NCBI GenBank assembly: GCA_048500095.1
Contig: JASNYQ010000001.1
Span: 1,182,696 to 1,246,695 of the forward strand
DNA from: Thermoanaerobaculia bacterium
Lineage (GTDB): Bacteria; Acidobacteriota; Thermoanaerobaculia; Multivoradales; JAGPDF01
Direction: 5' to 3'
DNA: 64,000 nucleotides
The notes below the pieces were generated by a model, which worked only from the letters and a program-made list of their open reading frames with translations, searched no databases and was not told the origin of the DNA. Shown in pieces: positions 5,004-10,092 of the stretch; the first letter of the stretch is position 1, and each line of letters starts with the position of its first letter. The position numbers and the translations under genes are program-made.

Positions 5004-5086
5004 AATCCGGTGACAGTTTACTTATTGAAACCAGCCCCTCGACCCGCCGGCGCACCGTGGGGCAATAAGTAAACTGTCACCGGATT
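5004..5086. repeat. hairpin element copy A: 23-bp perfect inverted repeat (aatccggtgacagtttacttatt / aataagtaaactgtcaccggatt) around a 37-bp spacer
   Basis: Read directly from the sequence. The arms are AT-richer than the surrounding DNA. It lies between convergent gene ends (4985 and 5086). Confidence 0.9.
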
Positions 5087-5565
5087 CACTCTTTCATGAT
5101 GTAGACCAGCTTCACGTACGGCGGCAGGTGGGAGGAGGCGTCGACGGTGACGTCGTGGGTGTGGCCGTCGTTGGCGGCGTGCTCGTCCTTGCCCTCCTCG
5201 AGGCTCTCGTCGTCCTCCCGCGGCTTGCTCGTGCGGCCGCGGTGCGAGTGCGTCGCGGCGCCGCCGAGCTCGCCGACCGCGCCGGTCGCCGGGTCGAGGC
5301 CGAGGACGAAGCGGTTGCGCAGGTCGGGCGTGAGCTGGCCGCCCGCCGTCATGCGCCCGTCGCAGAGCACCCAGCCCGGGGGCACCGCGGTGCCGTAGAA
5401 GGCGACGATCGTGCCGCTCGGAACCAGCGGCGGCGGCGGCGTGGCGACCGGGGTCGGTTCCGGCACCGGCGTGGCGGCCGCCTCCTCGGCCACCGGCGGC
5501 GCGGGGCTGCAGGCGGCGACGAGGAGACCTGCGAGGGCGAGCGCCGTCACGCCCCCCCCGCGCAT
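5086..5565 (-). CDS. lipoprotein with phage tail-collar-like domain
   Basis: Start taken at MRGGGVTALALAGLLVAAC (lipobox), internal to the longer ORF. Motifs GWVLCDGR, LPDLRNRFVLG, THSH and LPPYVKLVYIMK match the tail-collar / MdpB family. Confidence 0.55.
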   Translation of the reverse strand: MRGGGVTALALAGLLVAACSPAPPVAEEAAATPVPEPTPVATPPPPLVPSGTIVAFYGTAVPPGWVLCDGRMTAGGQLTPDLRNRFVLGLDPATGAVGELGGAATHSHRGRTSKPREDDESLEEGKDEHAANDGHTHDVTVDASSHLPPYVKLVYIMKE

Positions 5566-6026
5566 CAGCGGTCCCTCCGCTCGACCTCGATCTCGACCGT
5601 GCCGAACCCCTTGTCGTCGATCTCCACGTTCGCCCAGGAAGCGCCCTTGACGAGCTCCCACTCGATCTCGCCCGGCTTCTCCTCGAGCTTCTGCACCTGC
5701 CAGCCGTCGGTGGCGATGCGGTCGGCGTAGAACTGGCGCACCTCCTGCCAGGGGGCGTTCGCTTTCACCTTCCGCTTCCAGCTGTGGCTCCAGCCGTCGC
5801 CGGGGCCCTTCTCCTCGGTGACGACCAGCACGGCGCCGGGGTAGTCGGGCCAGCCCGGCACGACCTCCGCCAGCGCGGTCCGGCTCTCCGCCGGGGCGGC
5901 CTGCGGCGCCGGCGCCTCTACCGCGGGCGCCGGCGACGGCGACGGCGGCGGCGGCTCCTGCCGGGCGCAGGCGAGCGCCGGCAGGGCGAGCAGCAGGGTG
6001 AGTGCGATCACGGCCCAGGACCTCAT
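5565..6026 (-). CDS. hypothetical lipoprotein
   Basis: N-terminal MRSWAVIALTLLLALPALAC lipobox followed by a Pro/Ala-rich linker. Its stop overlaps the downstream start. Confidence 0.5.
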   Translation of the reverse strand: MRSWAVIALTLLLALPALACARQEPPPPSPSPAPAVEAPAPQAAPAESRTALAEVVPGWPDYPGAVLVVTEEKGPGDGWSHSWKRKVKANAPWQEVRQFYADRIATDGWQVQKLEEKPGEIEWELVKGASWANVEIDDKGFGTVEIEVERRDR

Positions 6027-6199
6027 CGTCGTCTCCTCCGGTCGATTCGAGGCCGCCCTTCCGCGGGCGGCGCCGGGTTCATGGTAGGACGCCGGTGGGC
6101 CGAGTCAAGGGGCGGCCGCCCTGCTACGATCTCCTCACATCCGCCGCGGCCGAGGGAGACCCCGTTCGAGGCCCCGGAGCCGCGAGCGGCAACCCCCCG

Positions 6200-7795: not shown

Positions 7796-7798
7796 GCC

Positions 7799-9022
7799 AT
7801 GGGAGAGGACGTGACGCGCACCGCCGTGCGACAGCCGGGGCTCGAGGAGGAGGCGGTCCGCCTCTTCCACGACCTCCACCAGGCCGCCTCCGCCGGGGCC
7901 ACCGAGGCGGCGGTCGACTACGGCGGCGCCCGCTTCGCGGTGGCGCTGCCTCCCTTGGGCGAGGGCGACCGCGGCATCGTCTATCACCTGCGTGGCTGCT
8001 CGCTGCCGCTCCCTCCGGACCCCGGGCCGCTCTGCCTCAAGGTGGCCAAGCTCCAGGCGGTCTGCCGCGAGCGGCTGCTCGAGGAGCAGATGACCACCGA
8101 CTTCTTCCTGTCGCGCGAGGTGGCGGTGCCGCGGATCCTCGCCATGGACCCGCTCGGGCGCTTCGCGGTCAAGGAGTACGTCGAGGGGGAGTCGATCACC
8201 AGCCTCTACCTGCGCTTCTCGACCCTCACGGTGCGCACCCAGGGGCTGATCCTCGAGGGGCTCCGCGCCTTCCTCGAGCGGCTGCTCGCGCTCTTCCGCG
8301 AGCGGCCCGACTGCCAGGTCTCGATCAGCCCGAACAACGTCTACGTCCTCACCGAGGCGGGCCGCTTCCGCGACCCCGCCCGCTTCGTGCTCATCGACCC
8401 CGGCACCACGCTCAAGAAGAGTTACGACGACTTCACTTTCGAGAAGTACTGGAACGAGGTGCTGCCGGACCGCATCCGCAAGTACCAGCGCACCGGCTAC
8501 CTGCAGTGGCTGGTGCCCAAGGAGGTGACGCAGTCGGACCGCGACGAGGCGAAGGAGTTCGGGATCTTCCGCGGCCTCAAGCCCTCGGAGGTCTTCCTGC
8601 TGCTGCAGGCGGCGCGCACCGTGGAGTTCGACGCCGAGGAGACGATCCTCCGGGAGGGGGCGATCGGCGAGAACTTCTACCTCGTGCTCGAGGGCGAGAT
8701 CCAGCTGCGCCGCGGGCCGCTCGGCGAGCCGGTCGGCCGCCCGCTCGGCCGCGGCGCGGTGCTCGGCGAGATGGCCTTCCTGCTGCGCGTGCCGCGCTCG
8801 ATGACCGCGGTGGCGACCACCCCCTGCCGGCTGATCGAGGTCGACCGCCAGAAGTTCGACGAGCTGCTCGACGCCCAGCTCGCCGCCCCGTACAAGCTGC
8901 TCCGGAACATCGCGGTGGCCCTGGCCGAGCGGCTCCACGAGCTCGACGCCGTCCACCACGGGCGGCACCCGGCGGCGGCCGCCGCAGCGGCTCCGGCAGC
9001 GGCCGCGGAGGAGGCCCGGTGA
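7799..9022 (+). CDS. atypical protein-kinase-like domain fused to cyclic-nucleotide-binding (cNMP) domain
   Basis: N-terminal half has a Gly-loop GEGDRGIVY, a VAIK-like LCLKVAK, SISPNNVYVL in the catalytic-loop position and DPG in place of DFG. C-terminal half is cNMP-binding (FRGL...FYLVLEGE...GEMAFL...R..TAVA). Confidence 0.6.
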   Translation: MGEDVTRTAVRQPGLEEEAVRLFHDLHQAASAGATEAAVDYGGARFAVALPPLGEGDRGIVYHLRGCSLPLPPDPGPLCLKVAKLQAVCRERLLEEQMTTDFFLSREVAVPRILAMDPLGRFAVKEYVEGESITSLYLRFSTLTVRTQGLILEGLRAFLERLLALFRERPDCQVSISPNNVYVLTEAGRFRDPARFVLIDPGTTLKKSYDDFTFEKYWNEVLPDRIRKYQRTGYLQWLVPKEVTQSDRDEAKEFGIFRGLKPSEVFLLLQAARTVEFDAEETILREGAIGENFYLVLEGEIQLRRGPLGEPVGRPLGRGAVLGEMAFLLRVPRSMTAVATTPCRLIEVDRQKFDELLDAQLAAPYKLLRNIAVALAERLHELDAVHHGRHPAAAAAAAPAAAAEEAR

Positions 9023-10008
9023 GCACCCTCGCCGCGCGCGGGGTTGCCTCGACCTTCACCCTCAAGGTCTGTCCGCGCTGCGAGGAGGGGGTCCTCACCT
9101 CCCGCACGGTGCCGCACGAGATCGAGGTCGGCGGCTCGCCGGTGCGGCTCCCCGCGGTCCAGGTCGAGGTCTGCGCGCGCTGCGGCTTCCAGGAGCTCTC
9201 GGGCCGCGAGACGCGCCTCTTCGAGCTCCTCTTCGCGCCGCGCGCGGGGGGGATCGCCGAGCTCGTCGCGACGCTGCACGCCGCCGGGATGCGCGGCCTC
9301 TTCCTGCGCGACAGCGTCGCGGAGAGCGCTCTCGCCTTCGGCTCGGCGGGCTACGTGGAGGCCCTGGCCGGGGAGCTCCGCGAGCTCTACCTCGACAACG
9401 AGGCGGGGCACGTCCTCTCCGGCCTCGACCGTGTCGAGGGGACGGTCCCGGTCGACCTTGCGGGGACGCCCTGTTCGGTGAAGTTGCCGAAGCTCGGCGA
9501 GGGGGAGAACGGCGTGGTCTTCGACTTCGCCGAGCGGGACGACGCGGTGCTCAAGCTCGCCAAGCCCCGCCCCTACAGCCGCGACCACGTGCGGCAGGAG
9601 TGCGCGCTCACGGAGCTCTTCGCGGGCGAGGGGGTGCCCGTCCCCGCCGTCCTCGCGGCCGATCCCGAGGGCCGGTTCGTGGTCAAGGAGCGGCTCGCGG
9701 GGGTCTCGCTGGCGGTCCTCTACGACGAGCTCGGTCCCCCCGGCTCGCCCCGCCACGAGCGGGCCCGCGCCGCGGTCGAGCGCTTCGCCGCCGGACTCCT
9801 CGAGCTCTTCGCGCGCCGGCCGGAGACCAAGACCTCGATCAGCCCGAACAACGTCTTCGTGCTCGAGCGGAACGGCGAGTGCCGCTGCCTGCTCGTCGAC
9901 ACCGGCCCGGCGCCCACCCACGACTACTCCCGCTTCGACTTCCGTACCTACTGGGAGGAGACGGTCCCGGAGAAGATCGCCCGCTACCGCGCCGTCGGCT
10001 TCATCTGA
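9019..10008 (+). CDS. zinc-ribbon + atypical kinase-like domain protein (paralogue of the N-terminal domain of 7799..9022)
   Basis: GTG at 9019 overlaps the upstream TGA (GTGA). N-terminal CPRCEEG...CARCG zinc ribbon. Then Gly-loop GEGENGVVF, AVLKLAK, the same SISPNNVFVL motif and LVDTGP. Confidence 0.55.
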   Translation: MSTLAARGVASTFTLKVCPRCEEGVLTSRTVPHEIEVGGSPVRLPAVQVEVCARCGFQELSGRETRLFELLFAPRAGGIAELVATLHAAGMRGLFLRDSVAESALAFGSAGYVEALAGELRELYLDNEAGHVLSGLDRVEGTVPVDLAGTPCSVKLPKLGEGENGVVFDFAERDDAVLKLAKPRPYSRDHVRQECALTELFAGEGVPVPAVLAADPEGRFVVKERLAGVSLAVLYDELGPPGSPRHERARAAVERFAAGLLELFARRPETKTSISPNNVFVLERNGECRCLLVDTGPAPTHDYSRFDFRTYWEETVPEKIARYRAVGFI

Positions 10009-10092
10009 AATGCGGTGACAGTTTACTTATATCCCCTCGGACCCCGAGAGCTCCCGGCTCGGTCCCGATATAAGTAAACTGTCACCGGATTT
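10008..10092. repeat. hairpin element copy B: 19-25-bp inverted repeat (aaatGcggtgacagtttacttatat / atataagtaaactgtcaccggattt) around a ~35-bp spacer; same arms as copy A, different spacer
   Basis: Read directly from the sequence. One mismatch at the outer end of the arms. Begins immediately after the stop at 10008. Confidence 0.9.

Follow-up and report, generated by a model that had tools for sequence, protein, structure and literature searches.

Two hairpins of a Thermoanaerobaculia genome as probable gene-less derivatives of a TIRYT-type Y1 transposase unit

Two long-stem hairpins in a 64-kb stretch of DNA from a member of the Thermoanaerobaculia (Acidobacteriota), the whole of which is referred to as the window, are probably gene-less miniature derivatives of a TIRtron, a unit carrying a Y1 transposase of subclass 2.1 (TIRYT). 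The arms in the window correspond to the terminal inverted repeat (TIR) of this unit, and the hairpins are therefore head-to-head TIR dimers without a gene, similar to MITEs or REPINs. This upholds the original prediction of a dispersed, palindromic, MITE-like element instead of two independent terminators, as the arms are the TIRs of a widespread Y1 transposase unit. The hairpins are presumably mobilised in trans as ssDNA hairpins, and their influence on neighbouring genes is probably a side effect only.

Hairpins in the window and in near-identical relatives

Both elements are built as arm-spacer-arm and measure 83 bp (hairpin 1) and 87 bp (hairpin 2), with arms of 24 nt that are 100% complementary and of 27 nt that are 96% complementary, respectively; the single mismatch in the stem of hairpin 2 is G at 10011 (Table 1). 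The arms are AT-rich in a window with a GC content of 73.1%. Exact matches to the 17-mer GGTGACAGTTTACTTAT occur four times in the window (5009+, 5065-, 10014+ and 10070-), with an expectation of 0.00 in dinucleotide shuffles even when up to three mismatches are allowed, and a profile built from 247 arms of other genomes matched the same four arms only. Arm coordinates, complementarity and 17-mer count thus confirm two long-stem hairpins with near-identical AT-rich arms, as originally described, with identical runs of 18 nt between the left arms and 22 nt between the right arms. They were also taken for two copies of an identical element, which had to be revised: alignment of the two loops revealed no likeness beyond chance, with 203 of 500 shuffles equalling the best score, so that only the arms are common and the hairpins represent two dimers of one arm with non-homologous loops. 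The loop of hairpin 1 is likewise unrelated to the loops of other genomes. Such unrelated loops are unlike a classical MITE or REPIN, which replicates as a whole unit, and in this respect count against the preferred reading. In about 68 kb of sequence from the host lineage, two copies of the hairpin were seen. A direct target-site duplication was found neither at the flanks of hairpin 1 (GACACCC and CACTCTT) nor at those of hairpin 2 (CATCTGA and TCGAGGA), as expected for an HUH enzyme.

The location of both hairpins at stop codons was borne out. The patatin/Omp85-like gene stops with TGA at 4983-4985 on the + strand, and the tail-collar gene with TCA at 5086-5088 on the - strand, sharing base 5086 with the right arm of hairpin 1. 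The TGA of the APH-like gene (10006-10008) overlaps the extended stem of hairpin 2, the left arm of which begins inside the stop codon. As the APH-like C-terminus (RYRAVGFI before the stop; RYRAVGYI in the homologue from the relative L114) is native, hairpin 2 directly follows a native stop.

The MAG L113 shares 99.0% identity with the window along 17.8 kb, and its hairpin 1 is unchanged. The loop of hairpin 2 has the opposite orientation in L113 and in the Logan contig L112, with 30/39 identity (23% divergence); for L113, this flipped-loop match was reached by 0 of 500 shuffles. The left flank of hairpin 2 shows a 6-nt difference in L113, and a third allele is found at the same flank base in L112. 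With loop and flanks altered in a 99%-identical MAG, the hairpin 2 locus turns over fast, being remodelled at a far higher rate than the sequence around it. Ambiguous assembly could also flip a loop that lies between short inverted repeats, but would not explain the nine substitutions. No empty site was found, and it is from this remodelling of hairpin 2, not from presence or absence, that mobility of the hairpins is inferred.

Table 1. Coordinates of the two hairpins and of neighbouring features in the window
Feature	Position	Strand	Remarks
Patatin/Omp85-like gene	2658..4985	+	Start from L113 gene call; ends 18 nt before hairpin 1
Hairpin 1 left arm	5004..5027	+	AATCC + GGTGACAGTTTACTTAT + TG; 17-nt TIR core at 5009-5025
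Hairpin 1 loop	5028..5062		35 nt, GC-rich, folds into sub-stem
Hairpin 1 right arm	5063..5086	-	Inverted copy
Phage-tail-collar-domain gene	5086..5550	-	Start from L113 gene call
APH-like phosphotransferase gene	9019..10008	+	Stop TGA 10006-10008
Hairpin 2 left arm	10007..10033	+	GAAATGC + GGTGACAGTTTACTTAT + ATC
Hairpin 2 loop	10034..10066		33 nt
Hairpin 2 right arm	10067..10093	-	Inverted copy; ends 1 base ahead of the next gene's Shine-Dalgarno sequence
GAGGAGG ribosome-binding site of aldo-keto reductase gene	10094..10100	+	ATG at 10107
Aldo-keto reductase gene	10107..11207	+	Immediately 3' of hairpin 2

The arm in other genomes and its parent transposon

Exact copies of GGTGACAGTTTACTTAT were found at more than 111 loci of unrelated genomes. 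Among the hosts are Acidobacteriota as well as Alpha-, Gamma- and Zetaproteobacteria, together with a Geobacter MAG and another MAG labelled Mycobacteriaceae; a CC-flanked version of the arm is present in another 21 metagenome contigs. Adjacent motifs at distances of up to 200 nt were convergent (hairpin) in 58 cases, ++ in 14, -- in 15 and divergent in 3, so that in other genomes the repeat occurs most often as a head-to-head dimer. Spacers between paired 17-mers cluster at 7, 23 and 39-46 nt, and measure 39 nt in both window hairpins. In the Mycobacteriaceae-labelled MAG (L016, L034, L035, L050), the loops look homologous by eye. Across genomes, the outer boundary of the elements carries a recurrent "stutter" of truncated arm heads, in which flank and GGTG are repeated two to four times. 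The literature searched contained no mention of the 17-nt core or its cross-phylum invariance.

In Pseudomonadota, Acidobacteriota and other phyla, the arm forms the TIR of a unit of ~0.72 kb, consisting of the arm, ~26 nt, a gene for a Y1/HUH transposase of 221-232 aa, and an inverted arm at the stop codon. At eight loci, the motif precedes this gene by ~26 nt, with an inverted copy that either overlaps the stop codon or comes after it; gene-flanking arm pairs are present in L018 (twice), L080 (twice), L065, L033 and L001 (variants), with three gene copies in L018 and two in L080. The boundaries of the unit are inverted copies of (G)AATTAC-GGTGACAGTTTACTTAT. In an unbiased test with genes picked by protein similarity alone, 3/3 (L137, L138/L139 and L140) had AATTAC-GGTGACAGTTTACT on one side and the inverted copy on the other.

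The transposase gene was matched by Pfam Y1_Tnp at 6e-10, the sole Pfam family reported for the 222-aa protein, and by NCBIfam REP_Tyr_transpos with 78.4 bits at a cutoff of 80. In an alignment of seven proteins of 221-229 aa, the motifs NHVH (N59-H60-V61-H62), LWQ (W99-Q100) and YVxLNP (Y119-V120..N123-P124) are invariant. Subclass 2.1 of TnpA-Y1 is characterised by NHVH, W[EQ] and Y[IV]xLNP at a length of about 238 aa, and has been equated with Di Nocera's TIRYTs (Quentin et al., 2018, PMC6006769), which also correspond to the group 1 RAYTs of Bertels (PMC5581495). A further trait of this protein type is an HTH domain (DnaA_C-like) in a C-terminal extension. On the basis of its motifs, the transposase was therefore assigned to subclass 2.1, that is, to the TIRYT/TIRtron type of Di Nocera 2013. 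The family comprises at least 7999 protein clusters. No subclass-2.1 transposase was detected in the 64-kb window by tblastn and HMM searches, and the only Y1 gene there (36929-37855) is ~23% identical to the transposase and has different terminal repeats. A cognate gene from the host genome was not among the best 120 of at least 7999 family members.

The closest known system is that of the TIRtron/TIRYT repeats (Di Nocera, De Gregorio and Rocco, 2013, PMC3733652). Shared features are a RAYT-like Y1 transposase of ~220-240 aa with NHVH / WQ / Y[IV]xLNP, terminal inverted repeats that are long, not self-complementary and placed on both sides of the gene at short, constant distances, the 3' one overlapping the end of the gene, and the additional occurrence of repeats without a gene, as singles, dimers and clusters; the window differs in holding gene-less dimers only. 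TIRYT terminal repeats were described to have a common GGGGWSAS head and to form "moderately abundant" families with "many organized in dimers or clusters" (PMC3733652). The arm head in the window, GGTGACAG, agrees with GGGGWSAS at 7/8 positions, with T instead of the third G; of the 247 arms, 225 have T and 22 have G at this position, and GGGGACAG variants flank genes in L033 and L024. The searches of Quentin et al. themselves found no nearby repeats for subclass 2.1 genes (PMC6006769), and a Thermoanaerobaculia host is listed in neither PMC3733652 nor PMC6006769. No biochemistry of TIRYT enzymes was found in either of the papers that mention TIRYTs.

With REPIN-RAYT systems (Bertels and Rainey, 2011, PMC3116915; PMC3337134), the hairpins share two inverted units that, across a short spacer, fold into a hairpin some 80-110 nt long, a non-autonomous and extragenic nature, the link to a Y1 transposase whose gene has the repeats on either side, and the lack of target-site duplications. 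However, each REP is a palindrome with a GTAG-type head, whereas the single arm here is unstructured and no GTAG or GTGG head is present in the window arm; REPIN spacers are conserved within a genome, unlike the two window loops; and a classical RAYT (group 2 or 3) is inherited vertically as a single copy and serves a high-copy REPIN population, whereas the TIRYT-type family shows several gene copies in L018 and L080 and the same arm across phyla. IS-derived MITEs (such as Nezha, NEMIS and RUP) are likewise short non-coding sequences that end in the TIRs of an autonomous element, and lie beside genes with transcripts that fold into strong hairpins, but the window hairpins lack target-site duplications and a common internal sequence, and their parent encodes an HUH single-strand transposase, not a DDE enzyme. 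IS200/IS605 elements (IS608, ISDra2) share the Y1 HUH core (Pfam Y1_Tnp), a presumed single-strand "peel and paste" mode and the lack of duplication. They differ in having ends with differing subterminal hairpins instead of mutual inverted repeats, and a TnpA of ~150 aa with a Y---Q motif (PMC6006769); a tnpB gene, in turn, is absent here.

Folding and alternative explanations

A single arm has a folding energy of 0 kcal/mol, no better than shuffles, and thus no secondary structure alone. As ssDNA, the dimers reach -30 to -32 kcal/mol (z = -8.4 and -9.4); their RNA folds lie at -47 to -57 kcal/mol (z = -6 to -8.6). In the predicted RNA fold, the stem of hairpin 2 is extended by base pairs between 6/7 bases of GAGGAGG and the APH-like coding sequence at its 3' end; in the fold of L113, the left flank CCTCGAAAT pairs with ATTTCGAGG. 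A terminator scan of 4500-10600 yielded no terminator-like site at either hairpin. The tails of hairpins 1 and 2 are CACTCTTTCA and TCGAGGAGG, respectively, and as a T-tract follows neither stem, the hairpins are not canonical terminators; the terminator module considered in the original prediction failed this formal test. An RNA-level side effect may nonetheless exist. With Rfam 15, nothing but one tRNA reached the gathering score in the window, and no match was obtained at E<=1 in 4900-10250.

We regard it as rather unlikely that the hairpins are mainly host regulatory RNA selected at gene ends, acting as bidirectional or attenuating terminators, 3'-end mRNA stabilisers or translation dampers, with the transposon as their origin only. 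Their start 0-18 nt past native stops, their very stable RNA folds, the placement of hairpin 1 between convergent genes and its conservation in the 99% relative, and the reach of the hairpin 2 stem into the Shine-Dalgarno sequence of the aldo-keto reductase gene are all compatible with such a role. REP elements of E. coli reportedly stabilise upstream mRNA and, within ~15 nt of a stop codon, are said to lower translation of the upstream gene. REPs are also mostly found downstream of coding regions (Di Nocera et al., 2013, PMC3733652). Besides the missing T-tract and the empty terminator scan, however, it is a transposon family spanning several phyla, and no local requirement, that fixes the arm sequence, and the instability of hairpin 2 between near-identical strains argues against strong local constraint.

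The hairpins had further been proposed to delimit the block from the tail-collar to the APH-like gene as a unit. That they are the joint ends of a larger mobile or recombining unit, be it a composite element or an excisable five-gene cassette, is very improbable. The copies are just 5 kb apart and precisely intergenic, their identical arms could recombine, and the tail-collar gene and the adjacent unknown genes are missing beside the MFS-FHA operon in the relatives L114 and L115. Yet GC content and skew of the 5-10 kb block are the same as those of its flanks, block and both flanks are collinear in L113, and in more distant relatives only the MFS-FHA / cNMP-binding / APH-like trio stays together, in other surroundings and with no motif nearby. 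Moreover, each hairpin is a complete palindromic dimer and not one outward-facing end, and Y1/HUH transposases, which act on single-stranded ends, are not known to form composite transposons. The flanking of the 5-kb gene block by two hairpins thus looks coincidental. We find it hardly credible that hairpin 2 is a small invertible DNA switch in which a flip of the loop between the arms alters aldo-keto reductase expression. The opposite loop in L113 and L112 within a 17.8-kb flank of 99% identity, and the position directly upstream of Shine-Dalgarno sequence and ATG, are what such a switch would show, but the flipped loops differ at 9/39 positions and the flank differs as well, which is no simple flip; no recombinase gene is adjacent, palindrome assembly may misorient the loop, and known invertons are far longer than a segment of 33-39 nt.

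Proposed mobilisation and implications

For gene-less TIRtron derivatives, the following course can be envisaged. A TIRYT enzyme, encoded at another site of the genome or since lost, would recognise the stem formed by the two arms where replication forks expose single-stranded DNA, cut at the stem foot near the flank/GGTG boundary, and insert the hairpin into further single-stranded targets. No target-site duplication would arise, in keeping with IS200/IS605 and REP/RAYT enzymes. Elements would survive in intergenic gaps just past stop codons, where transcripts would end in a strong 3' hairpin and hairpin 2, according to the predicted fold, may block the ribosome-binding site in front of the aldo-keto reductase gene. 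It is conceivable, although we consider it doubtful, that GGTGACAGTTTACTTAT is the near-invariant recognition site of a very large, almost uncharacterised Y1 family that spreads between phyla and seeds REPIN-like dimers of a non-palindromic unit. If so, the "stutter" would be the trace of an unusual chemistry by which the stem foot is cleaved and re-ligated, and the rapid flip and replacement of hairpin 2 in strains of 99% identity would mark the system as active in Thermoanaerobaculia.

The hairpins thereby gain a concrete identity as gene-less dimers of TIRYT terminal repeats, which replaces that of a gene-block delimiter; as bacterial repeats they are of an ordinary kind, and annotation should mask hairpins of this type as mobile repeats instead of calling them terminators or operators. 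The same 17-nt core in genomes of 47% to 73% GC from several phyla suggests tight protein-DNA recognition, frequent horizontal transfer, or both. The poorly studied TIRYT family is extended to Thermoanaerobaculia, and the strain differences at hairpin 2, together with the recurrent outer "stutter", offer testable handles on end processing by subclass 2.1 Y1 enzymes.

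Hairpins and gene context

Both predicted long-stem hairpins exist, with perfectly complementary arms of 24 nt and 35 nt in between in hairpin 1, and arms of 27 nt with one mismatch and 33 nt in between in hairpin 2. The window has a GC content of 73.1%, so the arms are conspicuously AT-rich, as had been stated. The window has four occurrences of their common core, GGTGACAGTTTACTTAT, against a shuffle expectation of 0.00 that also holds at up to three mismatches; a profile built from 247 arms of other genomes retrieved no degenerate extra arm copies in the 64 kb. Of the claim that an identical element occurs twice, the common arm core stands, but the loops are unrelated: no homology was found between them or to 140 other loci, and the repeated thing is the arm, not the whole element. 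According to fold prediction, structure arises in the dimer only, with energies of about -30 kcal/mol for the ssDNA and -47 to -57 kcal/mol for the RNA, and with 0 shuffles folding as well. One arm by itself forms no secondary structure (0 kcal/mol) and so does not qualify as a REP.

Gene order (Table) was derived from third-position GC and Pfam. The window belongs to a Thermoanaerobaculia bacterium (Acidobacteriota), and its MFS-FHA protein shares 98% identity with a protein from a MAG of this class. Both hairpins adjoin native stop codons, in line with the original prediction; the C-terminus of the APH-like protein agrees with that of its homologue in a distant relative (L114), so the gene is not truncated by hairpin 2. 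The suggested terminator module found no support, as neither stem has a T-tract on its 3' side and a terminator and promoter scan returned nothing at either hairpin. Neither hairpin had an Rfam match, at gathering score or at E<=1; the sole Rfam match in the window is a tRNA gene. In the predicted RNA fold, an extension of the hairpin 2 stem pairs 6 of the 7 Shine-Dalgarno bases of the aldo-keto reductase gene, and in L113, a 99%-identical MAG contig, the flanks CCTCGAAAT and ATTTCGAGG are predicted to pair with them even more fully. REPs are known for mRNA stabilisation, attenuation and translational damping, and by analogy such side effects are plausible here.

Table. Features of the window.
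Feature	Position	Strand
Patatin/Omp85-like gene	end 4985	+
Hairpin 1	5004-5086 (arms 5004-5027 / 5063-5086)	
Tail-collar-domain gene	5086-~5550	-
Gene, product unknown	5565-6026	-
MFS-FHA fusion gene	~6098-7795	+
cNMP-binding protein gene	7799-9022	+
APH-like phosphotransferase gene	9019-10008	+
Hairpin 2	10007-10093 (arms 10007-10033 / 10067-10093)	
Aldo-keto reductase gene, preceded by GAGGAGG	10107-11207	+
tRNA gene	25554-25624	-
Second-family repeat copies	31197, 31995, 32604, 32632, 32669, 36816, 36877, 38062, 38129, 41296, 41407, 50900, 51024, 51178	
Second-family match, doubtful	42622	
Stretch of lower GC	~36000-45000	
Distant Y1 gene	36929-37855 (with repeats 36816-38141)	+
Inverted repeats upstream of distant Y1 gene	36816, 36877	+
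Inverted repeats downstream of distant Y1 gene	38062, 38129	-
Stutter sites	31197-31240, 36846-36889, 38062-38101, 41370-41419, 51000-51036	

The arm as terminal repeat of a transposase unit

The exact 17-mer core was searched in one genome per species, with MAG taxon labels taken as given, and was found at no fewer than 111 loci from very different bacteria. Among the matches listed, hosts include many Alpha- and Gammaproteobacteria, Zetaproteobacteria, a Geobacter MAG, Acidobacteriota and a MAG labelled Mycobacteriaceae (nine contigs); a few low-GC matches look like chance. The outer flank of the arm is conserved (consensus GGAATTAC-GGTGACAGTTTACTTAT-YTC), and the arm has the variants GGTGACAGTTTAC, ..GTAAC, ..GTTCAC and GGGGACAGTATAC. 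The dimer is the dominant form, neighbouring 17-mers among the matches listed making 58 convergent (hairpin) pairs vs 3 divergent ones, and spacers between them fall into discrete classes of 7, 23 and 39-46 nt, with 39 nt in both window hairpins. At 8 loci among the matches listed, the motif lies ~26 nt upstream of a gene for 221-232 aa, and an inverted copy overlaps the stop codon of this gene or directly follows it; in one case (locus L080) the last residues of the protein are encoded by the arm itself (..GAT AAG TAA). Conserved outer flank, convergent pairs with discrete spacers and gene-flanking motif together identify one element family.

The gene encodes a Y1/HUH transposase (Pfam Y1_Tnp, 6e-10), scoring 78.4 bits with the NCBIfam REP-associated tyrosine transposase model, slightly below its cutoff of 80, and a search with a protein profile retrieved at least 7999 clusters belonging to this family from the protein database. 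As the 8 loci had been found via the DNA motif, three family members on long contigs were chosen by protein alone as an independent test, and all three genes have AATTAC-GGTGACAGTTTACT and its inverted copy on their flanks. The arm thus constitutes the ends of a transposon, and the dispersed palindromic element of the original prediction is the terminal inverted repeat (TIR) of a Y1-transposase unit. None of the homologues on plasmids reached 45% identity, so a plasmid vector is unsupported.

NHVH, LWQ and YVxLNP are invariant across an alignment of seven such transposases; motifs of the NHVH/WQ/YVxLNP type are diagnostic of TnpA-Y1 subclass 2.1 (Quentin et al. 2018, PMC6006769). This subclass is the counterpart of Bertels group 1 (PMC6006769; PMC5581495), and Quentin et al. 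treat it as equivalent to the "TIRYT" enzymes described by Di Nocera et al. 2013 (PMC6006769). Instead of REPs, the RAYT-like TIRYT genes have long terminal inverted repeats on either side; GGGGWSAS is common to these repeats, which in some species make up "moderately abundant families", with "many organized in dimers or clusters" (PMC3733652). The window arm, GGTGACAG, agrees with this head at 7/8 positions, and GGGGACAG variants flank transposase genes in other loci examined. Transposase motifs and the near-match of the head argue that each hairpin is a head-to-head dimer of TIRYT-type terminal repeats or, equivalently, a TIR-bounded unit (TIRtron) after loss of its gene. Integron attC, dif/Xer and operator sites had been considered as identities of the hairpins and were dropped when the transposase link was found.

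No subclass-2.1 transposase was found in the window by tblastn, and the sole match of an HMM search of the window was the distant Y1 gene (Table), which was rejected as cognate enzyme because its own terminal repeats differ from the arms. Among the best 120 of at least 7999 family members, none came from the 4.09-Mb MAG contig, so that this listing gave no cognate gene in the same genome.

Bracketing and evidence of turnover

The hairpins had been proposed to delimit a 5-kb gene block. GC content and skews within 5-10 kb agree with the flanks, and the block shows no foreign composition; in L113 the region is collinear throughout, and each hairpin is a whole palindrome in itself rather than an end facing outward. 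Beyond this 99% MAG, the next-nearest relative has only ~70% protein identity and non-syntenic flanks. Relatives with ~72% protein identity keep the MFS-FHA / cNMP / APH-like operon alone, amid unrelated genes and with no motif within 20 kb, and the five genes are not conserved as a unit; no empty site was found among L113 and these relatives. Given flank-like composition, collinearity, operon-only conservation and complete palindromes, the hairpins do not appear to delimit a block, and the bracketing looks coincidental, the result of two insertions into a genome that bears repeats.

Over the window's first 17.8 kb, identity to L113 (GCA_027493395.1, contig JAOSKT010000001.1, 4.09 Mb) is 99.0%. 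Hairpin 1 is the same at every base, whereas hairpin 2 sits at the same site with a different sequence, its loop diverging by 23% vs 1% in the surroundings. The hairpin 2 loops of L113 and the window align only in reverse complement, with 30/39 identities (a score reached by 0/500 shuffles) vs 21/40 in the same orientation, and the left flanks differ by 6 nt plus one substitution (TGACCTCGAAATCC in L113, TGAAATGC in the window). In L112, a Logan contig of a further sample, the loop is of the L113 type and a third variant, T, occupies the left-flank position. The locus is unstable, and we infer that the hairpin 2 element was replaced or re-processed rather than having drifted in place. Assembly ambiguity could contribute to the loop flip, but does not account for the loop substitutions.

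L112 (SRR35045363, 2415 bp) has the left arm of hairpin 2 at its very start, and many TIRYT-family proteins among the matches listed lie on 0.7-2 kb contigs, which fits assemblies that break at palindromic repeats of this kind. The L112 start was rejected as evidence for multi-copy repeats, since one palindromic arm of 31 nt is enough to break a k=31 graph. The arm provides stop codons (ATAAGTAA) to incoming frames: in L113, the APH-like ORF (12922-13986) is frameshifted near ..VLERNG relative to the window, by either assembly error or pseudogene formation, and runs on into hairpin 2 to a TAA within the right arm.

Proposed boundary processing and a second repeat family

The behaviour of IS200/IS605 TnpA and E. 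coli TnpA-REP is established knowledge and underlies the mechanism proposed here, together with its description in the background sections of PMC6006769 and PMC8266576. By analogy, the Y1 enzyme would act on single-stranded DNA, recognise the stem and cut at its foot; the element would have moved without target duplication, both window hairpins lacking a direct repeat at their ends. In the 17-mer family, 47/245 arms vs ~4 expected have a further copy of the 5-nt flank and GGTG a short way upstream, mostly 10-24 nt off as 3'-truncated arm heads (for example ggattacggtggattacggtggattacGGTGACAG), a recurrent signature that supports processing at the outer boundary of the arm. This stutter comprises 1-3 tandem copies of a 5-7-nt flank and the repeat's first 4-7 nt before each copy (for example gtaagaaggtgtaagaaggtgtaagaaggtgctaagaaGGTGCCAGGCGAT), and was seen at the window sites in the Table as well as at loci L019, L008, L035, L116, L136 and L140.

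The distant Y1 gene encodes 308 aa (Pfam Y1_Tnp, 4.5e-7; NCBIfam REP_Tyr_transpos, 39.6 bits, below cutoff), with the HuH motif THHHL and YLARHG instead of Y---NP; it is ~23% identical to TIRYTs and does not, by eye, fit the Quentin 2018 motif table. Its inverted repeats, GGTGCCATGCGAT, are related to a second dispersed repeat family, GGTGCCAGGCGAY(YTGC), with 15 matches at <=2 mismatches vs 1.45 expected in the window, chiefly in same-orientation clusters rather than hairpin dimers. This family has the head GGTGNCAG in common with the hairpin arms, and its duplicated stutter flank varies between copies. Several copies and the distant Y1 gene lie in a ~9-kb stretch of 60-70% GC (73-77% around), with few ORFs of the usual third-position GC bias, possibly a genomic island.

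Literature searches with the arm sequence returned unrelated primer sequences only, and nothing in the Di Nocera supplements; core, family size, occurrence in Thermoanaerobaculia and stutter were not found in searchable literature text. RAYT/TIRYT-associated repeats in dimers are of a kind already known. What may be new is the explicit 17-nt core, which stays the same across phyla and at GC contents of 47-73%, the great size of the transposase protein family, the occurrence of a TIRYT-type repeat in Thermoanaerobaculia and the outer stutter signature.
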